From: an uncultured Chloroflexia bacterium
GTDB lineage: Bacteria > Chloroflexota > UBA6077 > JACCZL01
DNA length: 64,000 bases
Direction of reading: 5' to 3'
Assembly (NCBI GenBank): GCA_963765765.1
Contig: CAVXYC010000030.1
Location: forward strand, 64,001-128,000
Shown: in pieces, positions 24,280-40,070 of the stretch
Layout of the letters: the number at the start of each line of letters is the position of its first letter
Position numbering within the stretch: position 1 is the stretch's first letter
The notes under the pieces: generated by a model
Told to the model about the DNA's origin: nothing
The model's database searches: none
The model's input: only the letters and a program-made list of their open reading frames with translations
Program-made: the position numbers and the translations under genes

Positions 24280-27238
24280 TCAGTCGCCCATCCCGTGGCG
24301 GAGCGCCCAGGCGATCGCTTCCGCTCGGCTGCGCACACCGAGCTTGGTATAGATGTGCGTCAGATGCCGGTCAACGGTCGCTACGCTGACCACCAGAGCG
24401 TCGGCAATCTCCCTGGTGGTAGCTCCGGTCACGAGGTGCTCGAGAACGGTGCGCTCGCGTGTGCTCAACCTATCGGACGCTTCGCTGGAGGGGACGGAGT
24501 CTGTCTCGGACACGGGTATCTGGAAGGCAATTGCCTCGTCGATGGCCTGGTCAATGGACATCGCTCGTCCGGTGGTCCAGGCTTTCTCAAAATCGTCCGA
24601 TGCCAGCCGCGCCCGAGCAGATTCCGTCGTCTCCGTAATGACCGACTCGGCTAGAGGTATCGGCATGACGTCGATGGCCGCGCTGAACGCATGGACGGCG
24701 CTGATCAGTCGGACCGCCCGCTCTGGATCGCCGAGTGCATTGATCAGAGCTGCCCAGGTAGCCAGGCCATTGTGAACGGTCCATGGTGTGCCCAGGCCCT
24801 GAAGCTGTGTGACGCCTGAGCGTACGAGCTCCAGCGCCGGACGATAGTCTCCGCGCCGAAACGCTACCAGGCCCTTGAGGTGGGAACAGATCGCTTCACC
24901 TTCCAGGAACCCGATCTCCTGCCGAATCGCGACAGCGCGGCCGTAGTGCTCCCACGCGGCGTCCAGATCATTGCCAATGTGCGCGGCCAGCGCCAGCAGG
25001 TGCACTGACCAGCCCATCAGCCACCGATCGCCGCACGCCTCGGCCACGCTCAGACTTCGCTGCCCCAGGCGCCTGGCGGCCTCGGCATCGTTTTCGAAAT
25101 ACCGAACACGCCCCATGACGTGAAGAACCCAGGCGTCAGCCCACTGATTGTGATGCTCCCGAGCGAGAGGCAGGGCCTCCTCGAGGAAGTGTTCAGCCGC
25201 GGCGCTATCGCGTTGGATGTGTGCCAACCAGGCTGCCCCGTAGAGCGCCTTGAGTCTCGCCTCGCCACCCGCCAGGATCGCTCAAGCGCCTGCTGCAACC
25301 AGCGCCGCCCTTCACTAATATGACCCCGCTGTGGCCAGAACCAGGCCAGCGCACCCGTTAAGCGAAGCTGCTCATCGTGGGCACGATCATCGGCGAAAAA
25401 GTAAGTGAGCGCAGCCCGCAGGTTATCGTGCTCGGCCTGCAGGCGGTCCAACCAGGCCAGTTGTGCTCGGCCACGCAGGAGCGGCTCCGCCACCTCCGCA
25501 AGCTGTAAAAAGTAGCCTGCCTGCCACCTTCGCATCGAAGCCAGCTCAGCCTCACTTTCGAGCTGCTCAATGCCGTATTCCCGAATGGTCTCGAGCATGG
25601 TGAAGCGCGGCTCGCCCGATGCCGCGTCCATGGGTCTGATCAGGCTCTGACTGATGAGCGACTCGACCCCATCGACGACTTCGTTCTCGACGATTGACCA
25701 ACGTTGATTACCAACGGTCGCGGCAGCCGCTGCTTCGGCGGACTCGAGCGTGAACCCGCCAACGAAGATTGCCAATCGTCGAAACAACAATTGTCCTCCG
25801 ATGGGAGCAGGTTGTAGCTCCAGGCGATAGTATTACGAAGCGTGCGCTGCCGATCGGGCAAATCCACGTTCCCACCGGTCAGGAGCTGCAGCCGCGGCGG
25901 CGATTGGGTCTCCTGAGGAGCGCCCGCAATCGTCGTCGCGTCGGGATCGGTAAGCGTGCCTCCGAGCCGAACGAGCATCGACTCAGCGGAGAAGATTCGG
26001 ACACGAGCCGCTGCCAGCTCCACGGCCAATGGCAGTCCATCGAGCCGGTGACAGATCTGTGCGACAGTCGCCGCGTTCTCCGAAGTGAGCATAAAGTCCG
26101 GCCGCACGGCGCGAGCGCGGTCTACAAATAGACGGACCGCCTCGGAGGCGGCGAAGCGATCGAGCGTCGTGAGTGACCCTGCGTCGGTCGGTTGCACGCT
26201 CGGCAGGTCAAGTGGCGGGACCGTCCGCTCACGCTCACCCGAGATTCGGAGTGCTATGCGACTTGTCACTAACAGGGTGCACCCGGAACAGCGCGTCAGG
26301 AGAGCCGCCAGGGCCGCGCCGGCAGCGTGCACCTGCTCGAAGTTGTCAAGTATCAAGAGCATGCGCTTGCTGCCCAGGTGATCGGCTAGCACCTCAATCG
26401 AAGGTCGTCCCTGCACGTCTGGCAGACCGAGCGCCTGCACCACCGTTGGAATGACGAGATCGGGATCCACGATGGGTGCCAGGGGTACAAAGCACAACCC
26501 ATCGGCGTAGCGGTCCGCGGTCAGCGCGGCGAGCTGAATGGCAAAGCGCGTCTTGCCCGTCCCGCCGGGTCCGGTGAGCGTCATCAACCGACAGTCAGTC
26601 AGGGCAGCGCATGCCTCCGCCAGCTCGCGCTCGCGTCCGATAAACGTCGTTAACTGCTCCGGCAGGCTCGGAGCGTGATGTCCGCCGGTACGGAGCGCTG
26701 GAAATTCTTCCGGCATTCCAGCCACGATGAGCTGAGCTAGGTGCTCCGCGCGCGGCAGATCCTTGAGCCAGTATTCGCCCAGATCGCGAAGCGCGACGCC
26801 GTTAGGAAGATCCGCTTCTATGAGCTCACGCGTGGATCGCGAGACGAGAATCTGCCCGCCATGGCCGGCGGCGCCGATACGCGCGGCCCGGTGCACGTCG
26901 AGCCCGATGTAGTTGCCGCCGACCACATCGGGCTGTCCCGTGTGGATGCCCATACGCGCGCGTATGGGACCCGCCGCCGCTGCCAATGCCGCGGCCAACG
27001 CCCGCTGGATGTCCAGTGCCGCGTTTACCGCATCGAGCGCACGGGCGAAGACCAAGAGGAAGCCATCGCCCTCGTTGCTGACTTCGTGGCCCCGACGCTC
27101 CGCGAGCGTCGCCCGAACCAGGGAGTGATACGACTGAAGCACGTCGCTGTAAGCATCGCCAAGCGCATGCAGCAGGCGAGTGGAGCCTTCAATATCGATC
27201 ACCAGGAACGTCACAGTCCCTGCGGGAATTGCGGTCAA
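24280..27238 (-). CDS. Adenylate/guanylate cyclase-STAND ATPase-TPR-LuxR regulator, two frameshifts (near 25790 and 25245)
   Basis: TFLVIDIEGST/EGDGF/RMGIHTG cyclase; GPGGTGKT Walker A; LILDNFE; LDGLPLAVELAA; LSTRERTVL...IYTKLGVRSR HTH. Confidence 0.88.
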
Positions 27239-28581: not shown

Positions 28582-29652
28582 ATGCGAAGTCTCCGAATTG
28601 ACGACAAGCTGCCTTCCTGGGACAAGACTGAACCGCGGCATGAATGGAAAGGCATTCTAGTTGGCAACGGGGCTAGTCGTGCAGTTTGGGACGACTTCCA
28701 ATACACCTCTCTCTATGAAACGTCTCTATCAGGTGGTCCATATGGGAAGGTGAATAAGTATTTGAGACCCTATGCTGAAGAGCGTGGTCTGTGGCATTCG
28801 CTAACCAAAACTGACCAGGTCATATTCGAGTCAATGAAGACTCAGAATTTTGAACAAGTATTATCAGCACTGATGACTGCCAGGACCGTATGCGAATCAC
28901 TAAACATAGAAACTGCAACGATACAATCGTGCTACAAGAGCGTTCAAAATGCACTGATACACGCTGTTAAACATGTTCATATACCACATAATCTTGCTAA
29001 ACCTATGTTTGAGAATATAAGAGAATCACTCAGAATGCATTCAGTAATATTCTCAACGAACTACGATTTAATAATATATTGGGCTATTATGGATGGTTAG
29101 TATAAAGATTTTCCAGACTACTTCTGGGGGAAGGACAGTAGATTTAACAACACAGATACTAATACAAGACGAGTTGACGTAACGCGACTTCTATTTCTTC
29201 ATGGAGCTCTGCACCTGTATCGTGCTCAGGACGGTGAAACGTTTAAGTCCAAGAGTGACTTTGGCAGTACACTGTTAGATCAATTTGGAACATTGATGGG
29301 TGATGACTACACCCCGTTGTTTATAACCGAGGGAACAGCTCAAAATAAGCTTGCGTCCATTCACCATTCTGATTATCTGTCTTTTGCTTATCGAGAGTTT
29401 GAGCAGCACGATGGCCCGCTGGTGGTGTTCGGACAGGCACTTGGAGATAGTGACAAGCATTTGGTTGAAGCGATCGACGGCTGGGGAAAGAGGCCCATAG
29501 CAATTGGGATGTTGCCCAGCGACTCTGAGAGTATCAGGAAGCGGAAACTTGCTCTCCATCAGCAATTACCAAAGGCTGAGCTGCTTTTCTTCAATGCAAC
29601 AACGCATCCTCTGGGGTCGCCGAACCTTAAGGTTGCGCGGCCGACTCCCTAA
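28582..29652 (+). CDS. DUF4917 / SIR2-like domain protein interrupted by in-frame TAG at 29098
   Basis: ILVGNGAS, IFSTNYDLIIYWA, FLHGALHL, PLFITEG..K..I..SDYL, LVVFG.AL..D.HL; both halves in one frame; visibly AT-richer than flanks. Confidence 0.75.
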
Positions 29653-29656
29653 TGAT

Positions 29657-29938
29657 TCAGGGTTTATAAGAGCACCAGGAGCCATCGTCGTTCCTTTGAT
29701 GGCAGCTCCAGAAGGGGCCGCGGCGACTATGCATCAGCGTCATGGGAAGCTGATGCACCGCGCAGACGGGTGCGCGCAGCGGTTGTGATTCGGGATCAGC
29801 TTCAGGAAGCATTGATTCAGGCTTGCTCGCGGCGCGCTGGATGACCTGCTCGACTGTTTCTGATGGGTCTTTGGTTTGGCCCACCATCGCAAAATTTCCA
29901 GCCATCTTGGCAATCACCAGGTACGTGGTTTTACCCAT
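29657..29938 (-). CDS. Small hypothetical protein with C-terminal Zn-finger-like motif
   Basis: 93 aa from MGKTT; CAVH-x16-C-x9-C; GGGAG RBS; 37 bp downstream of recombinase. Confidence 0.6.
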   Translation of the reverse strand: MGKTTYLVIAKMAGNFAMVGQTKDPSETVEQVIQRAASKPESMLPEADPESQPLRAPVCAVHQLPMTLMHSRRGPFWSCHQRNDDGSWCSYKP

Positions 29939-29975
29939 CAGCTCACCACTCCCTTCTGTGAGGATGGGGTGGCGC

Positions 29976-30864
29976 TCATAGGCTGGTTTTCTCCATGGCC
30001 TTTCGGCCGCTTCGCTTGGCCAGGTGCACATAGATCTGGGTCGTGTCCAGTCGCGCGTGCCCCAGCCAATCCTTGAGCTGAAAGGCACTCACCCCGTGCT
30101 GAGCCTTATAGGTCGCGAAGGTATGCCTGAAGGAATGGCACCCTGCCCGCTTGGTGATCTGAGCACCCCGACGGTACTTGGTCACGAGTTTCTGCACTCC
30201 ACGCTGGCCGAGTGGCTCACCATACTGGTTCAAGAAGAGATGGTCATCGGACACGTCAGGTCGGACCTTCAGCCAGCTCCTGATGGCTTGCATGCCTTTC
30301 TTCTCCAGCTCGATCTGACGGGTCACCATGCCTTTACCCACCACAGTGATGAGCTGGTGCTCCAGGTCGACCGCTTCAAGCCGTAGGCTACACAGCTCGG
30401 ACACCCTGATCCCTGTCTGCAAGAACAGCTGGAGAATGGCAAAGTCCCTGGGGTTGCCCCCAGCTTGCGCCAACATTCTGGAATATTCATCGGGTGCCAG
30501 GATGGAGCGGGAGTTCTTCTCTTTCTTGGGTGTGTCCAAGCCTTCAGCAGGGGAGTGGGCGATGACTTGCAGATCTTCCCGCGCGAAACGGAAATATTCT
30601 CGGATCGCGGCCAGCTTGCGGGCTCGAGAGACCGCCCGAGAGTTTCTTCTCGCCCAGGCAGGCCAAATACTCCCGCACATCCACCCGAGCTACGTGATCC
30701 ACCGCGGCGATGGTGGCGTTGTTGGCGTGGATCCAGTCAATGAACTGACTCAGATCCGTGCGATAGGCACTCTGGGTGAGCTCGCTCCTGTTTCTGGCCT
30801 GCAACCAGCGGAGGAATTGCTCAAGCGCGAGTTCTAACGTGGGGGCTGTGGTGGTGATGGTCAT
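29976..30864 (-). CDS. XerC/XerD-like tyrosine recombinase, one frameshift near 30632
   Basis: SAM-like N-domain (TQSAYRTDLSQF, SRARKLAAIREYFRF); catalytic R (TGIRVSE), K (GKG), HSFRH, LGH, Y (TTQIY). Confidence 0.9.
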
Positions 30865-30967
30865 AGAGCTGGCTGGTGTCCTTCCAGGAACGATCACCAA
30901 AGAATGATCGACCTGACCCCAGAGTCTCACGACGGGCCCCGCGGCACAACAGCCTTTCTCCAGTAAA

Positions 30968-31109
30968 ACATGGTTCGCATAACCATGTCAATCGGGAGTT
31001 ATTGCGACCCCAAAGTAAGCGGGGTTGAGATCAGCTTGGGAAGCTCTGGTTCGCAGAAGAAGCGTTATGAGACCCGCGAGTCAGTCCGATAATGGGGGTT
31101 ATCGGAACG
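30968..31109. other. Cluster of dif-like recombination sites upstream of the recombinase
   Basis: GGTTCGCATAA half-site (30972); GGTTCGCAGAA-GAAGCG-TTATGAGACCC (31048-31075); CAGTCCGATAA-TGGGGG-TTATCGGAACG (31082-31109). Confidence 0.7.
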
Positions 31110-31125
31110 AAAAAAGCGGGCCTTG

Positions 31126-32135
31126 CTACTGGATGACTTCGGTGGCCTGCGTCAGGATGGACGGCGGGATGGTCAGCCCCAGGGCCTGCGCTGTTTTGAG
31201 ATTGATGACGAAGTCAAACCGTGGGCCGCTCCATCGGCAGGTCGCCGGGGCGAGCGCCGCGCAGGATCTTGTCCACGTATGGCGACGCACTCCGGTAGAC
31301 CTCGGATCGACTCAGCCCATATGCCAGCAAGCCTCCGGCCCGAGCGAACCCGGATTTTCTGCTGATCGACGGCAGCCGATACTGGAGCGCTAACTCGGCG
31401 AGGCGTCCCCACGCAGAGTCGAACTGAGGGTTGGTGAGAATCTTGAGGGCATCGGCGCCGTCTGCGGACATGGCCGCGAACGCTTCGTCGAGGCCGCTGA
31501 GGTCCGGGATGGGACGATGTGAAGCTGTAGCCCAGCCCAGGGCGCGGCCTCCTGGAGCGCCCGCTCGCGCGCGCTCCGCGGCGGTGGGGTGGGCGCGGGC
31601 TGAGCGGAGCACGGCTACGCGGGAGGCGAGCGGGACCGCTTCCTTCAAGAGTTGAAGCTGCTTGCCTTCCAGCTGCGCCCGCTCACGCCGGCCATCCCGG
31701 TGATATTCCCGCCGGGCGCGCGATGTTGTCGACGAGCCCGATCTCAATCGCTCGCCGCAGACGAGGATCGCCACGAGGGGGAGGGTGACTGGTCGCCTGC
31801 TTGGCGGCGGCGCTAGCCTTCGAGGCCGTACGCAACCAGCTCGACGTTCCGCGCACGAGCTCGTTCGCGAGGGCCCGTACCGTTGAGAGTCCCCTCGGAC
31901 CAGCGGGACTCCACGGCGAGGTTGCGCCCCTCGACCCAGCCCAGCTCCGCATCTCATCCCAGAACGCGTCCCAACGGGCGCTAGGCGAATCACCGAGGAC
32001 GCCGATCAGGCGCACCGGCTCGGACGTTGGGGCCTGGGGAGGGAGCAGCCCGCAGCCGGCCAGCAGAGCGAGGCCTGACACGGACAGGCCGCCGCGCAGG
32101 AAATCGCGTCGCTGTAGAACGTGGAACAAGGTCAC
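31126..32135 (-). pseudogene. Orphan ABC substrate-binding protein paralog B (ABC_sub_bind type), many frameshifts
   Basis: RRDFLRGGLSVSGLALLAGCG signal; GKQLQLLKE, AGGLLAYG, YVDKILRGARPGDLPMERP, ATEVIQ* end. Confidence 0.8.
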
Positions 32136-33143
32136 TGGATTAGTTCCGTTGCCTCGGCAAGGACCGACTGAGGAATCGTAGATTCCGAGCATCTGAGCGG
32201 TCTTGAGATTGATCACCAGGTCAAATTTCTCCGGCCGCTCCACCGGTAGCTCCGCGGGATTGGCGCCCTTCAGAATCTTGTCCACATAGGTGGCGGCGCG
32301 TCGCTCCTGGGCGGGACGATTTGCCCCGTAGGCGATCAGTCCGCCGACTGCCACAAATCGCCGATCGGCCGACATCATGGGCAACCGGTGCGTGAGCGCC
32401 AGCGCGCCGACACGCGCCACATTGCTCGCCAGCACGAGATTGTCCACCAGGGTCAGCGCATCCACGCGCTCCTGCACCGCTCGCTCGAACGCGCCCTCGA
32501 TGGCGGCGGGCTCACGCACCTCCAGAGGCACAGCGTCAGCCCCAGGGGGCCGGCCGCGGCCTCCGCTATCTGCACCTGGCCGGCCTGGTTGAGATCAGGG
32601 TCAGGGTTCCAGATAACGCCCACCGTGACACGGACGGGAGTGTCTTTCGCAGGACTTCCAACCGCTTCCCAATCAGCTCGCGGGCGATGCTGGTCTGCCC
32701 GGTGACGTTGCCTCCTGGCCGGGCGAGACTGGCCACAAAGCCGTCCGCCACCGGGTTGTTCGTCTGTGCCATCACAATGGGGATGGTGCTGGTGGCACGC
32801 ATCGCGGCCCGGATAGGGCCTGCCCCGGAGGCTACGATCACGTCGACGGGCATGTTCACGAGCTCGGCGGCCAGCCGGGGAGGCGATCGAGCTGCCCATC
32901 GGCGCCTCGCCACTCCACGGTGACCGTACTGCCCTCGATGTAGCCCAGCTCTGCCAGGCCCTCCCGCAAGGCGTCGGCCCCTTCCTGCTCGCCGACCGAC
33001 AGATAGCCGATACGAGGTGTCCGAACCGCCGGCTGAGAGCGTGGCGATACCAGCCCGCAGCCGGCCAGCAGACCGAGGCCGGCCACGGACAGGCCACCCC
33101 TCAGGAAGCGGCGACGGGTGCTCGATGGTCCGAGTGGCGTCAT
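32132..33143 (-). pseudogene. Orphan ABC substrate-binding protein paralog A, several frameshifts
   Basis: RRRFLRGGLSVAGLGLLAGCG; LGYIEG; GFVASLARPGGNVTG; YVDKILKGANPAELPVERPEKFDLVINLKTA; ATELIQ* overlaps GTG of paralog B. Confidence 0.8.
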
Positions 33144-33293
33144 GATGGCGCTAGTGTACGCCCCGAAGTGAGGGCGCTATGGTACTCGGAACTGGGCGGG
33201 CTCTCCGCTAGCTGCTCGCGCAATCATGGTAGGGACGCAGTGGCAGTTGGAACCGTGGCGTAGCGCTCTTAGGAACCAGGTTAGTGACCTGTT

Positions 33294-33344
33294 CCGTTCG
33301 ATAATGGGGGGTTATAGGAACGAGCGGTGGGGGTTATCGGAACT
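33294..33344. other. Second dif-like site plus tandem partial copy
   Basis: CCGTTCGATAA-TGGGGGG-TTATAGGAACG (33294-33322) then TGGGGG-TTATCGGAAC (33328-33343); direct repeat of the 31082 site. Confidence 0.7.
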
Positions 33345-33375
33345 TGGCGGCCGGGATGCTCGCCGACCCAGTCTG

Positions 33376-33570
33376 CTACTGGATAACCTCGGTCGCCTCA
33401 GCCAGGACGGACTGTGGGATGGTGAGCCCGAGCCCCTGTGCGGCCTTGAGGTTGATCACGAAGTCCAAGGTCGTGGGCTCTTCGACGGGGAGATCGGCCG
33501 GTTTGGCCCCTTTGAGGATCTTGTCCACGTAGGCGGCGCCGCGTCCGAGTCGCCCTTTCCATCTAGAGAG
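33376..33570 (-). pseudogene. C-terminal fragment of ABC substrate-binding paralog C
   Basis: AAYVDKILKGAKPADLPVEEPTTLDFVINLKAAQGLGLTIPQSVLAEATEVIQ*. Confidence 0.8.
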
Positions 33571-33604
33571 CAGCGCTCTGGCGAATCCCGGCTGCCTCCT
33601 CGAA

Positions 33605-34210
33605 TCATGCGTTGGCGTCAAGCGGCGGGTGCTCGAGAACGCTGGGCCGGTACTCGACCAGCTGGATACGGCCGTCGAAGGTGCGGTTGTCGATCATCTC
33701 GAGGGCGACGTCCGGGTAGCCGTCGTAGATGCGTTCTGCGCCCGTGGCGCCGGTGATCACCGGGAACATGACGACCCGGAAGCGATCGACGAGTCCGGCT
33801 CGCAGCAGCGACCGGCACAGGCTGATGCTCCCGATCGTGCTCAGGAGGCCCGAGCCGTCCTCCTTCATCGCCCGGACGACTTCGACCGCCTCGTCGCGCA
33901 CGAGCGTGGTGTTTGCCCACGTGAGCGGCTCCTCGAGAGAAGCAGAGAACACCACCTTCGACGCTTGCGTGAGTTCGTCGACGGAGGCCTCCTCGTCGGC
34001 GGTGAACTCGTCCGTCCCCGCTGGGGTCTCTCCGGCGGCGAAGCCCGACATCAGTCGGTAGGTGTTCGCTCCCATCAGGTACGTGACCTCAGGTTGCTCG
34101 CCGAGCCAGGCGAGGTACTCGGGTCCTTCCAGCCCCCACCATCCTGGCCAGCCATCCGCCGACGCGTAGCCGTCGAGGGAGGTGATGAAATCGACGAGGA
34201 GTTCTGGCAT
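33605..34210 (-). CDS. Dihydrofolate reductase / RibD C-terminal family protein
   Basis: FITSLDGY, YLMGANTY, KVVFS.SL, GSISLCRSLLRAGLVD, FPVITG; intact, strongly G/C-ending codons. Confidence 0.88.
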   Translation of the reverse strand: MPELLVDFITSLDGYASADGWPGWWGLEGPEYLAWLGEQPEVTYLMGANTYRLMSGFAAGETPAGTDEFTADEEASVDELTQASKVVFSASLEEPLTWANTTLVRDEAVEVVRAMKEDGSGLLSTIGSISLCRSLLRAGLVDRFRVVMFPVITGATGAERIYDGYPDVALEMIDNRTFDGRIQLVEYRPSVLEHPPLDANA

Positions 34211-34239
34211 GGTCGTGTCCTTGTCCTTGGATGTCAGGT

Positions 34240-34322
34240 ACCGGCTTCTGCCGACGCGACCCGCAGCCGGCGAGCAGGCCGAGGCCGGCGCGCAGGAAGT
34301 CTCGACGACTCCACGGATCCAT
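34240..34322 (-). pseudogene. N-terminal signal-peptide fragment of an ABC substrate-binding paralog
   Basis: MDPWSRRDFLRAGLGLLAGCG, near-identical to the signals of paralogs A and B. Confidence 0.6.
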
Positions 34323-34349
34323 GCCGGCCAGTATAGACCTGGCGGCCGT

Positions 34350-36863: not shown

Positions 36864-39800
36864 GTGATCCCTAGAGCTCGGTGGGTGCGTCATAGCGCAA
36901 GCGTAGGATTGGCCCTCGGCGTGCTGGTTGCAACCAACGCAGCTCTGCCTTCGGCCACCTCGGCGCGTGAGCCGCTGCACACCGTGCCGCTGCAGGTCAC
37001 ATCCCCGGGCACGGCGGGCAGCCCTACGGCTGCCGCTCCTACCAACATCATCGAAGCCCAGAAACCTCAGGCATCGGCAACGGTCCCGCCAACAGTGACT
37101 CCGAGCGCCGCTGACATCGAGGCCCTGCGGCGTCTGAACGCCGGAACACAACCATCGGCAACGCCTCGCGCGGCCACCCGTACTGCCACTCCGCGCGCCG
37201 GGGCACGCGGTGCTACGCTTACATCAACCCCCACGAGCACGGTCACGTCAATTCCATCAATGACCGCCTCCGCGACGGCCAGCCCAACGTCGGCAGTGCA
37301 GGCTGTATCGTCACCGGAAGCTTCCGCGACGCCCTCGCCCACTGCTACACCCCCGACGGCGACCCCGACGCCAACGTCAACCGCGCAAGCTGCGCAGTTC
37401 CGGGCCGCGTCCAGCGGAACTGTGTCGTACGGCCAGGATGCCTGCTTGCGTCCCTTCCAGTATTGGGACACGTTGGAGGCGGCTGCGCGGGCTGCCGGTG
37501 TCGACCCTGAGATCGTGGGCGCACTCATGATTGTGGAAGGGTCCGGGGAGCAAGCGGTATCGCCAGCTGGGGCGATGGGCCTGATGCAGCTTATGCCGGA
37601 CAAGTTTCGAACGGGTGACGATCCATTTGACGTCACCACGAATCTCCGCCGAGCAGCCGAGCACATCAGCCTTTTGCGCGCCCGTTGGGGCAGCACCGAT
37701 CGCATTGCCGCCGCGTATTTCGGCGCGATCGATGGCGGAGGCAACATCACCGGCGCGTCTGACGGAAATGTGGATGGCTACGAATACGTTCGGCGATTCC
37801 AGGGCGCCACCGATTGTCTGCGCACGGGCCTCGGCCGCGGCGGCGCCGCCGTCGCACGTCTCGCTTCGCCGCTCGGCATCTCGCTCGCGCGAACGAATGT
37901 CTCATTGGACTACTGGGGCGACGTCAGCAAATCGCCCGGCGAGCCAGCCCGCACCGCCGCGGAGCAACAGCGATTCGGAACACGCCACCTGGCCTGGGAC
38001 GTGATCATCCCCGACGCGCCGAGCAACGGTCGCGGCTCGCCGGTGTTCGCTCCCGTCGAGGGAACCCTACAGCGCACCAACGATCCGGCCGGCGGACCGA
38101 ATGGCCTGGTGATCGAGAATCGATCATCTGATCTCCGCGTGCGACTTCTGCACATGGATCGGCTCGCGCCCAATATCGCCACGGCCACGCAGGTGCAGGC
38201 GGGCCAGTGGGTGGGCGTCCTGGGCGGACAGGGGACCGAACAATTCCCGCATCTGCACGTCTCGCTGGAGCGGCTTTCCAACGGTGATCGCCTCGACCCG
38301 GCGCGGTTTTTCTTCCGACCAAATTCAGATGCGCGTATGTCCGGCAGTGGAAGCTCTGCCATGTTAGCGATACCTTCCGCGGACCTCATGGGAGCGATTC
38401 GCGTGCCAGCCAGCGGCGATGTGACCAGCGCAAATATTGTCGGCGATATCGTGGCGTGGTCCGAGGTAGACGGCGACCAGCGACACGTTCGTGGCTACGA
38501 CTCCGAGGTGGGTCTCGCTTTCCAGGTTGGAGATGCCAGCCAGGGTGAGCAGTTCAGCCCGGCGCTCGGGGTCAATCACCTGGCGTGGGTGGACACGCGC
38601 AATGCCTGGAACAGCGGCAAAAGCATCCAGGACGGTTCATTCGGTGACGTCTACATCTATGACCTGTCCACTGGCGACGAGCGCCGACTCACAAGTGTTC
38701 CAGGTGAATACTCAGATCTCGTTGTGGCCGGTGATCGCGTACTCTGGGTAAGCGCCGCGGGCAATCTTCAGGCGCTTCACCTCATGGAGCTAACCACTGG
38801 AGCGCATCAGGTGGTGGATTGGACGATCGGATCCATCTCGAGAGTCTCCGCTTCCGACAACGCCATTACCTACGTCGTGCAGCAAGCCACGGCCCAGTCA
38901 GACGGCCGTGAGATCCACCAGTACGATCTCGGCTCAGGACAAGTCACAAGCCTCTTCCGGGGGGCAGTGGGACAGCCGGTCCAGGTTGGACAGATGGTGG
39001 CCTGGGACGAGCAGCTTGGTAACGGTAAGCAAAGCATTATCCGCGCACTGGATACGCGCACGGGCGATATTCAGCTCTGGGCGGGGGACCCGGCTGTGCG
39101 GAGCGACCTTCAGGCGTTCGATCACACGCTGCTCTGGCATGAAAAGAGCCCTGACGGCTCACAGGTGCTGGTGATTTACGGCTTGAGCTCGAATACACTG
39201 ACTCGCATCGCCGATTCGTCGATCGACACTCGAGTAGCGGCATCGCTGGGGCAGGGCACGGTGCTCTGGAAGGCGGCAAGTGGAGAGCTGGTCGTCTCAC
39301 ATCTACGCGACTGGGACATTGGCGGCGGCCGCTACTTCGGTGAAGATGACGCCCAGCGCCGGCTGGCCGGTCAGACGGGCTACCGCGTGACCGATGACGG
39401 CGGAATCCCGATGTGGAGCGAGTATCAGCGCCTGGGAGGCGAGGCGGAGCTCGGCCGGCCGCTCTCCGGTCGCCTCCAGCTTTCGGACGGTGGCGTGTAT
39501 CAGCTCACCGAGCACGCACTGCTTCACTGGCAGCCAGAGCGAGGGCAAGTTGAGCGTGCAAGTGCATTTGAGATTCTCTCTCGACTGGGCTACGACGGCT
39601 GGATGCACGCGGTGAGGCAGGTTCCATTGCCCGCGAGTGTCGTGGCAAACGGTGATCCGGAGCGGGCTCGCCAGGTGCGCCTGAGCTGGCTCACCGATCC
39701 ATCGCTGAAGGCAGCCTACCTGGCGCCACCGGACGGTGTGGCGGCGCGAGCCTGGGGACTGGAATCCGCTATCAACCGCTACGGATTGCCAGCTTCTCCA

Positions 39801-40070
39801 CCGGAGAGCTTCGGTCCCTTCGTGGCCCAGAGGTTTGAGCGGGCTGTGCTCCAACACTGGGTGGTCGCCCAGCCCGGGCAGCCCGAGAATGTCGTCACGA
39901 CAGCTCTGGTTGGATCGCTCATCCGAGAGCTAATTCAGGATGGACTTGGCGTGGCGGACACCAACGGCAGTCCGCTCGACGCGCCCGTTGCCACGCTGAG
40001 TGCCGACCTGACGAATCGTTGGGTGTCACCCCGCGGCGTATCCGGGGCGGACGTGCCCAGTGGTGAGTAA
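36864..40070 (+). CDS. Secreted multidomain peptidoglycan hydrolase: SLT lytic transglycosylase + M23 peptidase + beta-propeller + C-terminal wall-associated repeats
   Basis: Signal peptide; Thr/Pro/Ala linker; IVEGS..AVSPAGAMGLMQLMP, AAAYFG; HLAWD and PHLH Zn motifs; WVDTRN..DVYIYDL repeats; LGGEAELGRPLS / YGLP..QRFERAVLQ repeats. Confidence 0.85.
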   Translation: MIPRARWVRHSASVGLALGVLVATNAALPSATSAREPLHTVPLQVTSPGTAGSPTAAAPTNIIEAQKPQASATVPPTVTPSAADIEALRRLNAGTQPSATPRAATRTATPRAGARGATLTSTPTSTVTSIPSMTASATASPTSAVQAVSSPEASATPSPTATPPTATPTPTSTAQAAQFRAASSGTVSYGQDACLRPFQYWDTLEAAARAAGVDPEIVGALMIVEGSGEQAVSPAGAMGLMQLMPDKFRTGDDPFDVTTNLRRAAEHISLLRARWGSTDRIAAAYFGAIDGGGNITGASDGNVDGYEYVRRFQGATDCLRTGLGRGGAAVARLASPLGISLARTNVSLDYWGDVSKSPGEPARTAAEQQRFGTRHLAWDVIIPDAPSNGRGSPVFAPVEGTLQRTNDPAGGPNGLVIENRSSDLRVRLLHMDRLAPNIATATQVQAGQWVGVLGGQGTEQFPHLHVSLERLSNGDRLDPARFFFRPNSDARMSGSGSSAMLAIPSADLMGAIRVPASGDVTSANIVGDIVAWSEVDGDQRHVRGYDSEVGLAFQVGDASQGEQFSPALGVNHLAWVDTRNAWNSGKSIQDGSFGDVYIYDLSTGDERRLTSVPGEYSDLVVAGDRVLWVSAAGNLQALHLMELTTGAHQVVDWTIGSISRVSASDNAITYVVQQATAQSDGREIHQYDLGSGQVTSLFRGAVGQPVQVGQMVAWDEQLGNGKQSIIRALDTRTGDIQLWAGDPAVRSDLQAFDHTLLWHEKSPDGSQVLVIYGLSSNTLTRIADSSIDTRVAASLGQGTVLWKAASGELVVSHLRDWDIGGGRYFGEDDAQRRLAGQTGYRVTDDGGIPMWSEYQRLGGEAELGRPLSGRLQLSDGGVYQLTEHALLHWQPERGQVERASAFEILSRLGYDGWMHAVRQVPLPASVVANGDPERARQVRLSWLTDPSLKAAYLAPPDGVAARAWGLESAINRYGLPASPPESFGPFVAQRFERAVLQHWVVAQPGQPENVVTTALVGSLIRELIQDGLGVADTNGSPLDAPVATLSADLTNRWVSPRGVSGADVPSGE

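Follow-up and report, generated by a model that had tools for sequence, protein, structure and literature searches.

A recombinase gene with a bipartite site

The window analysed here is a stretch of 64,000 nucleotides (nt) of contig CAVXYC010000030.1 from an uncultured Chloroflexia bacterium (assembly GCA_963765765.1). It contains a gene for a tyrosine recombinase of the Xer family, two palindromic sites directly upstream of that gene (an accessory palindrome, A, and a dif-like core, B), two adjacent genes for ABC substrate-binding proteins (SBPs) and, beyond these, a second B site. The recombinase gene (29976..30866, minus strand) would encode about 297 amino acids if read through. Its catalytic domain lies in the open reading frame (ORF) at 29976-30680 (PF00589, 121 bits), the N-terminal part begins in a different frame, at the ATG at 30866, and the two are divided by one additional base near 30634; a single soil contig (depth 4.8) lacks one base at exactly 30634, which is weak evidence on this point. 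A sequence-only reading of the locus had credited the protein with a full R-K-H-R-H-Y catalytic set, without stating the frameshift. All six residues are indeed present, and the motifs GIRVSEL, GKG, HSFRH, GHA and QIY align with archaeal XerA, to which the closest solved structures belong.

In what follows, G000 denotes the genome that holds the window (33 contigs, 6.49 Mb, contamination estimate 6.85%), C numbers are contigs, G001 is a genome of the same genus, and G089 and G112 come from other families, with recombinase protein identities of 59-62%. The window protein scored 162.4 bits with the XerC model (cut-off 335), 161 with XerA (220), 150.7 with XerD (330), 105.9 with the XerS equivalog NF003462 (267), and 79.6 and 59.9 with the integron-integrase models TIGR02249 (265) and NF011946 (435). 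Judged by these scores, the recombinase is nearest to XerC, archaeal XerA and XerD, yet falls under every curated cut-off. A better fit to a housekeeping Xer protein is the candidate at C29:41097-41969 of the same genome. A contig of a Chloroflexota metagenome-assembled genome carries a recombinase 88% identical to the window copy, which assigns the organism to that phylum. In metagenomes, 1745 of 5942 candidate proteins are relatives at E ≤ 1e-30, about 297 amino acids long; most lie on contigs of a few kb, as would suit a repeated or mobile context. Immediately after the recombinase gene comes a 96-amino-acid ORF (29657..29947, minus strand) with a C-terminal C..H...C..C pattern that, read by eye, looks like a zinc ribbon; it has no match in Pfam or NCBIfam. 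This ORF is kept beside the recombinase at two loci in G001 (72% and 91% identity) and immediately downstream of it in G089 (36%), and no homologue was found beside the G112 recombinase copies.

Canonical dif sites are 28 bp long, built as 11-6-11, with ATAA and TTAT at the inner ends of the arms. Site B1 (31082..31109, plus strand; CAGTCCGATAA-TGGGGG-TTATCGGAACG) has the same length, layout and inner ends and scores 49.7 bits with our covariance model. The sequence-only reading had placed a site there and a direct repeat of it 2.2 kb away; both were found, in the same orientation. The second, B2 (33294..33322, plus strand; CCGTTCGATAA-TGGGGGG-TTATAGGAACG; 26.2 bits), has a 7-nt spacer, arm mismatches and a degenerate right arm. 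Two features had escaped that reading. One is a half-site, B3 (33328..33343, plus strand; TGGGGG-TTATCGGAAC), with exact spacer and right arm and no left arm; it is the third of three window matches to the 15-mer GGGGGTTATCGGAAC at up to two mismatches, against 0.07 expected. The other is the bipartite arrangement at the recombinase-proximal site, where A' (30972..31009, plus strand; GGTTCGCATAA-N16-TTATTGCGACC) separates the recombinase start from B1. This palindrome departs from the consensus GGTTCCGATAA-N16-TTATCTGGAACC, whose right arm carries one extra base, and homology to the paralogous locus at C20:552055-550908 starts at 30969, the left edge of A. The left arm of A in the window (30968-30988) also lies within a short palindrome, ACATGGTT-CGCAT-AACCATGT, which is the preferred single-strand fold; the GGTT...AACC symmetry recurs in other copies of A. 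A degenerate site-A-like element (33246..33280, plus strand; GTTGGAACC...TTAGGAACCAGG), weak and recognised by eye only, is found 13 nt to the left of B2.

Elsewhere in G000 the two sites recur together. At seven loci the palindrome GGTTCCGATAA-N15/16-TTATCTGGAACC stands 74-76 nt (start to start) to the left of a B site and, as we read them, these A+B composites form the left end of seven arrays or loci. In most of the seven, A sits inside a non-coding repeat of about 270 nt. A leftward gene common to the composite loci was looked for and not found. The repeat ends in site A, and usually in B too, has further arm-like motifs (TATTGCCCGGTGATAAACCGG and TTCCGGGTAACCG) and is arranged in tandem on C23; examples are C23:468619-469087, C1:3070-3365, C1:191046-191279 and C32:296750-296907, and on C1 a 35-nt inverted repeat lies beside it. 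Searches of five composite loci against Rfam at E ≤ 1 returned tRNA and chance microRNA matches only, the window held no Rfam family at gathering thresholds, and a scan of 30700-33500 revealed no sigma-70-like promoter.

The linkage of recombinase, A and B extends well beyond this genome. Homologues of the recombinase (E ≤ 1e-60) occur in five of 401 sampled Chloroflexota genomes, namely G000, G001, G029, G089 and G112. When a model of B trained on G000 was applied to the distant carriers, its best genome-wide matches fell just upstream of the recombinase gene, for the one copy in G089 and for two of the three copies in G112 (the third runs off its contig). At the G089 locus and both G112 loci the order is as in the window: the gene start, 82-87 nt, A, 36-37 nt, B. 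The exact A pattern was present in 3/401 genomes (G000, G089 and G112), all of them recombinase carriers, and in none of the 396 non-carriers. Among relatives from the same class, B matches at E ≤ 1e-3 were seen in both recombinase-positive genomes (G001 and G029) against three of 63 negatives. G029 has a truncated recombinase gene and, elsewhere, one A+B composite and two further B sites; in G001, several recombinase copies lie at the ends of contigs, one of them interrupted by an in-frame stop, and the sites are degenerate. In the A variant common to the window and C20, and again in G089, changes in one arm are matched by changes in the other; this is suggestive only, as the sequences are too few for a test. 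With the unit of recombinase, A and B present in three separate lineages and exact A in no non-carrier, the association is hard to ascribe to chance, though related genomes are not independent samples, and we are confident that the recombinase-A-B unit is real.

Two further observations concern these carriers. The 4.2-kb contig G001:C9 (L050, L049) has both of its ends inside recombinase copies, one of which abuts a transposase-like sequence recognised by eye. In G112 (L098, contig G112:C378, 2490-4049), an open frame in which the C-terminal portion of a DDE transposase of the Tn3 family is fused with another, different tyrosine recombinase directly adjoins the A-B composite of a recombinase homologue.

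Dispersed core sites as candidate crossover junctions

The sequence-only reading had proposed an array of SBP genes punctuated by sites beside one recombinase. The site is neither unique nor confined to such an array. Matches to its right half at up to two mismatches numbered 44 in G000, against none for a reversed control, and merging searches with both halves gave 51 unique B sites, 35 of them full sites with at least seven of 11 arm positions complementary. Their consensus is CGTTCCGATAA-TGGGGG-TTATCGGAACG, in which the outer part of the left arm is variable; its inner part, the spacer and the right arm hardly change. The covariance model found 45 matches in G000 against 0-3 per genome in 65 relatives of the same class, 52 of which had none at E ≤ 0.05; an exact 22-mer of the site had no locus in a collection of species-representative genomes and two loci in metagenome contigs.

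The 51 sites make up 28 loci on many contigs. Eleven loci contain at least two sites, and in ten of the 11 these are all co-oriented, so that directly repeated sites bounding genes, as first proposed for the window, are found across the genome as well. The expected enrichment at SBP gene ends held in part: a PF04392 match is no more than 300 nt away from 18 of the 51 sites (0.41 expected), and the other 33 lie elsewhere, while a large SBP array at C1:274-282 kb (about five genes) has no B site and another at C17:124-132 kb (about eight genes) has one, at its edge. The link between B sites and SBP genes is thus real but partial. Other cargo found between co-oriented sites includes an ArsC-type phosphatase gene with an aquaporin gene, an AurF-like oxygenase gene with one for an extracytoplasmic function (ECF) sigma factor, cydAB, and a phosphofructokinase gene (pfk) with a SnoaL-like gene. 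Where we examined their positions, B sites were near gene ends, often just past stop codons or between convergent genes (for example C1:192527). The few sites of relatives also form co-oriented pairs, around an ArsR/MerA-like/Clp_N block in G007, a Zn-dependent dehydrogenase gene in G001 and 0.7 kb in G029.

Integration targeted to tRNA genes was rejected, as only five site entries (four sites, three loci) had one of the 51 tRNA genes at most 5 kb away. A dif site at a replication terminus was rejected too: in GC-skew profiles (20 kb, nine contigs) no site coincided with a clear switch, and site orientation bore no consistent relation to the skew. C20:548061-549445 contains a tRNA-Thr gene and, after it, a frameshifted gene for a phage-type integrase; they lie 1.3-2.5 kb away from two B sites and represent an integrated element of their own beside an SBP/site module.

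Evidence that B is a point of exchange comes from the DNA on either side of it. We compared the 400-nt flanks of all sites, all against all, and obtained 50 pairs in register through the core. In 19 of these only the left flank was common, with homology ending at 414-420 in 18 of the 19 (the core ends at 417); in nine only the right flank was common, with homology starting at 387-404; and in 18 the core alone was common. Homology therefore broke at the core in 27 of the 28 one-sided pairs. Both flanks were common to window B1 and C20:551919 and to three pairs from C4, C5 and C11 that resemble strain duplicates. The families of flanks combine freely: on the left, the 3' end of a plus-strand SBP gene, the A composite or the recombinase leader; on the right, the 3' end of a minus-strand SBP gene in two forms or the 5' region of a plus-strand SBP gene. 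One left family precedes at least six different right contexts. In addition, variants of the arms travel with their own flanks. Right arms in GGACC go with the right-flank family TSTTTSAAA at four of five sites, against one of 34 for GGAAC, and left arms in GGCC, GCCG or TGCC occur only with the flank family of the plus-strand SBP 3' end (four of the seven sites flagged by flank pattern), which implies that exchange falls between the arms, inside the core.

The three C4, C5 and C11 copies just mentioned (C4:24540, C5:26172 and C11:72881) have at least 806 nt in common around a half-site, at 97-98.5% identity. Strain variation at a single locus may account for them, which would be in line with the contamination estimate for this genome.

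The spacer, too, has the properties of a crossover region. Arms are conserved between genomes, and spacers are nearly uniform within a genome and differ between genomes: TGGGGG in G000 (exact in 15 of 35 full sites, with one change in most others), GCATCG in G089, GCGGCG, GCGGGG, GCGCCG and GCGCGG in G112, and GAGGGG and TCGGGG in G029. Genome-specific spacers with shared arms are expected if partner sites must share an overlap region. Taken together, the flanks, arms and spacers make it probable that B is a recombination junction that has moved modules.

Comparison of related genomes points in the same direction. The distance from the Rieske-protein gene to the P-type ATPase gene is 440 nt in G001 against 4.7 kb in G000, where the extra DNA includes an A+B composite, cydAB, a half-site and a further B site (three sites in all). 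Metagenome contig L085 matches the Rieske flank, at 92% identity to C27:88419-89285, and after it has three motifs resembling the arms, the gene for a GNAT acetyltransferase that G000 does not have, a perfect B site and the right flank of C27:45983 (83-93% identity). The two flanks that it joins are 42 kb apart in G000 and co-oriented, so in the related strain the orthologous B site would have a different left-hand gene.

Genes between and beyond the sites

The interval between B1 and B2 was said to hold exactly two SBP genes, and two adjacent SBP genes are what we find, with frame changes that had not been stated. SBP1 (31129..~32120, minus strand), a PF04392 ABC substrate-binding lipoprotein paralogue, has two, near 31219 and 31750. 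Its stop codon (31126-31128) is 16 nt from the end of B1, its protein ends in ATEVIQ, and it has paralogues at eight other loci (83-87% nucleotide identity). SBP2, another PF04392 paralogue (32135..33143, minus strand), stops within about 15 nt of the SBP1 start and has four frame changes, near 32180, 32535, 32623 and 32878; related soil contigs carry single extra bases at 32179, 32530/31, 32623 and 32874, coinciding with these. Beyond B2 lie the 3' fragment of a third PF04392 gene (33376..33545, minus strand; about 55 codons), whose stop codon (33376-33378) is 32 nt past half-site B3, a gene of the RibD_C/dihydrofolate-reductase family (33605..34213, minus strand; PF01872, 73 bits) and the 5' remnant of the third SBP gene, covering the signal-peptide region (34250..34346, minus strand; 78-88% identity to other SBP 5' ends). 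The RibD_C gene occupies the interior of the third SBP gene (33546-34249), and SBP homology resumes at 34250.

The SBP 5' leader and Tat/lipoprotein signal-peptide region at 33051-33188 is 84-97% identical to those at nine other G000 loci (92-97% at seven of the nine), against 83-91% between loci for gene bodies and modules; that leaders are more alike than bodies points to gene conversion or a conserved leader element. Genes split across adjacent frames are common throughout G000, among them 67 PF04392 pieces, several recombinases, PhoX (L031:12502-13990) and an aquaporin/MIP gene (L031:5411-6251). The assembly may accordingly hold indel errors, which makes 'pseudogene' calls unsafe and leaves indels and true decay inseparable. 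Further neighbours in the window are genes for an adenylate-cyclase/STAND-ATPase protein (25640-27238), a truncated DUF4917 protein (28582-29100) and a 1068-amino-acid protein with SLT and M23 peptidase domains (36864-40070), and the region around the locus resembles an accessory or mobile-DNA island. Against G001 the window itself aligned only in pieces on short contigs, which say little about synteny.

Proposed module shuffling, its alternatives and known systems

We favour, with modest confidence, a site-specific system of module shuffling in which the dedicated recombinase is the catalyst; it would be neither an integron nor specific to SBP genes, and its activity may lie in the past. On this reading the recombinase gene, A' and B1 would be the recombinase-proximal end of the window locus, SBP1 and SBP2 one module between B1 and B2, and the decayed third SBP gene with its RibD_C gene the DNA beyond B2. 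Directly upstream of its gene the recombinase would find its cognate bipartite site, made of the accessory palindrome A and, 36-72 nt further out, the core B. Recombinase protomers would bind both arms of B, with strand exchange taking place over the 6-bp spacer; the proposal of a single homomeric Xer-type recombinase, first made from the near-symmetric arms, is plausible. Site A may bind further protomers or a partner and so set synapsis or directionality, as the accessory motifs of TnpI do at the IRS, and, from its place about 85-105 nt upstream of the start codon, it may also auto-regulate the recombinase gene. Core-only B sites would then recombine with one another, co-oriented pairs releasing a circle that could re-enter at another B, and modules bounded by B would be moved, lost and recombined; the sequence consequences of this step are those described above. 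Repetition of these events would have left the roughly 40-50 B sites in 28 loci of G000, bounding PF04392 SBP, ars, cydAB, pfk and other modules.

Several observations weigh against this reading. The recombinase gene is absent near most site clusters (27 of the other 28 loci are without it), and the host Xer at C29:41097-41969 could act there. In G000 it is single-copy and frameshifted in the assembly, a G001 copy has an in-frame TAG and the G029 copy is without its N-terminal part. The orientation of genes inside modules is mixed. Spacers of 5 or 7 nt, found in nine of the 35 full sites, do not suit a tyrosine recombinase, unless they reflect site decay or homopolymer errors. The flank pairs belong to families of 3-8 members and are not independent, so that independent events are fewer than pairs. 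At the Rieske locus, the borders of the insertion relative to G001 cannot be mapped to the sites since the intergenic DNA does not align, and L085, a 2.4-kb short-read contig, could be chimeric. Activity may also be long past, given that paralogous modules are only 83-91% identical. Finally, recombination was not seen directly, as neither excision circles nor deleted alleles nor any other product of it came to light: the only runs covering the region are soil metagenomes, with contigs of about 150 nt, none bridging a pair of sites. The read check used four runs, all soil or rhizosphere contig sets in pieces of about 90-270 nt, of which the best contained no more than 0.17 of the sampled words. 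Candidate 'joints' among them were discarded, as their short sides were 21-30 nt (one 76) at 88% likeness and fitted cross-matches between SBP paralogues.

Other explanations account for part of these data. The recombinase with A and B might be the resolution or integration module of a mobile element (a plasmid, an integrative and conjugative element or a transposon), the B copies being integration relics multiplied along with SBP duplication, with no ongoing shuffling. A gene with its site adjacent is the layout of XerS/difSL (PMC2731167) and TnpI/IRS (PMC2847244); G089 has just one site, next to the gene; the window has mobile-element-like genes (those for the 1068-amino-acid SLT and M23 protein and for DUF4917); a Tn3 transposase fragment abuts a G112 composite; and the identity of the paralogous modules indicates that they are old. 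However, this would leave unexplained why there are as many as 28 loci in dispersed places, why flank families combine freely at the core and why modules of ordinary metabolic genes lie between co-oriented sites. Moreover, tblastn with the G112 Tn3 fragment detected no part of a Tn3 transposase in G000 (terminal inverted repeats were not searched), on which ground a Tn3 module in G000 was rejected, and we consider the mobile-element explanation unlikely. Even less is to be said for an old tandem SBP duplication that merely carried two functionless sites along. SBP1, SBP2 and the third gene are paralogues, and both B1 and B2 stand before an SBP 3' end, in sequence that is 74-79% similar. Nevertheless, the linker between site and stop codon varies between loci while the site is kept, many sites lie at loci without SBP genes, and tandem SBP arrays elsewhere have no site. 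The site survey and the breaks in flank homology already contradict this explanation, to which we attach almost no weight.

The remaining alternatives treat the palindrome as something other than a recombination site. It could be a repeat of the repetitive extragenic palindrome (REP) kind, acting as a hairpin at mRNA 3' ends or terminators or spread by HUH transposases, REP-associated tyrosine transposases (RAYTs) or replication errors, with its nearness to the recombinase incidental. The positions near gene ends, past stops or between convergent genes, the lineage-specific abundance under the covariance model and the folding of B1, better as single-stranded DNA than all of 200 shuffles, all suit such a repeat. 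Covariation between the arms, on the other hand, was not above shuffles (86.8% of cells paired against 85.6%), and conservation of the spacer equals that of the arms. The sites were not called in a terminator scan, no T-run follows them by eye, and both gene orientations occur. G000 does have three matches to Y1 transposases (PF01797), none of them with the motif within 1.5 kb, for which reason a REP/RAYT system was rejected. The A-B unit, furthermore, is conserved next to the recombinase in other families, and REP families are not known to stay conserved in this manner; the REP explanation is improbable. The palindromes might otherwise be transcription-factor operators of SBP and other genes, with half-sites 6 or 16-17 bp apart, a difference of about one helical turn. 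In support of operators, the arm GTTCCGATAA recurs in palindromes of two spacings, and some half-sites are in promoter regions, as upstream of the C11:72861 gene (of carboxymuconolactone-decarboxylase type by eye). Yet many sites lie between convergent stops, as at C1:192527, no regulon is conserved (52 of the 65 class relatives are without a match), a conserved spacer would be unexpected, and the linkage is to a recombinase rather than to a regulator, all of which makes operators very improbable.

We can also put forward, tentatively and as somewhat doubtful, a broader version of module shuffling: a third platform for gene modules beside integrons and the dif modules of Acinetobacter, made up of an XerA/XerC-like recombinase with a zinc-ribbon-like partner, a bipartite primary site composed of palindrome A, with its conserved extra base, and the 11-6-11 core B, and double-stranded, core-only B sites. 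Such a platform would capture, excise and reshuffle promoter-bearing modules among many chromosomal arrays, spread horizontally among Chloroflexota and have driven, among other things, the expansion of SBP genes. If true, module shuffling, hitherto known chiefly from integrons and, of late, the dif modules of Acinetobacter, would also be carried out by a different clade of recombinases, with a different site architecture and a multi-array chromosomal layout, in a poorly studied soil phylum; the principle would then have arisen more than once. It would explain, in concrete terms, how large soil genomes come to expand and turn over their accessory genes (transport, metal resistance, respiration), and the 28-bp site with one small recombinase would be a candidate tool for genome engineering. 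As the recombinase family is abundant in metagenomes, with the 1745 relatives noted above, the reading is testable at scale.

No description of the recombinase/A-B system was found in the literature searched with the terms we used, and its likeness to known systems is partial in each case. Housekeeping Xer systems with a single recombinase (XerS/difSL, XerH/difH and XerA/dif) likewise combine one Xer-type recombinase with a near-palindromic dif-like site, and XerS is genetically linked to difSL (PMC2731167). These systems, however, use one site per chromosome, whereas the window recombinase is found in 5/401 genomes, lies below the equivalog cut-offs and goes with a multi-copy site. A housekeeping Xer/dif role was rejected on account of this sporadic distribution, the 51 sites and the better Xer candidate on C29. 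In site architecture the system resembles the composite site of the TnpI recombinase. The IRS of Tn4430 has a core of two inverted motifs, where exchange takes place, with adjacent accessory motifs that repeat the same sequence, and sites made of the core alone recombine in a relaxed manner, giving deletions, inversions and intermolecular products (PMC2847244). Both systems thus place a core with same-sequence accessory motifs beside the gene for a small tyrosine recombinase. Nevertheless, TnpI has two direct repeats as accessory motifs, a 4-bp core spacer and a Tn3-family transposon as its setting, whereas G000 has an inverted accessory pair with a 16-nt spacer and a core amplified genome-wide.

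The sequence-only reading had proposed an integron-like system that uses double-stranded dif-like sites instead of attC hairpins; membership of integrons proper could not be sustained. The attC sites of integrons are imperfect-palindrome hairpins of 55-140 nt that act as folded single strands and are conserved in structure, not in sequence. There are clear parallels: a tyrosine recombinase gene stands beside a primary site with extra binding motifs, co-oriented secondary sites bound gene modules whose content differs between relatives, and circles would be released. However, the G000 recombinase is not IntI (79.6 bits against the cut-off of 265), and its sites are 28-bp 11-6-11 palindromes with conserved sequence and spacer and no arm covariation, unlike attC hairpins. 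The G000 modules, furthermore, often have several genes, their own upstream regions and mixed orientation, and there are many arrays per genome, most without a recombinase. In the window, recombinase, A and B are followed by a module and a second site, but the other loci are mostly without the recombinase, and gene orientation is mixed. An integron was rejected because the integrase models failed and no attC-type sites were found.

A functional parallel is with the pdif modules of Acinetobacter. There, 28-bp dif-like sites with 6-bp spacers bound shuffled modules, crossovers centre on the sites and spacer identity matters; the sites alternate in orientation (C/D modules), the host XerC and XerD act on them and the modules are found mainly on Rep_3 plasmids (PMC13141974). 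The modules of G000 are similarly bounded by dif-like sites, with crossovers at the sites as judged from sequence. They differ in that their clusters are co-oriented (10/11), in the near-symmetric arms, in their place on a Chloroflexota chromosome and in the linkage of a dedicated recombinase to site A.

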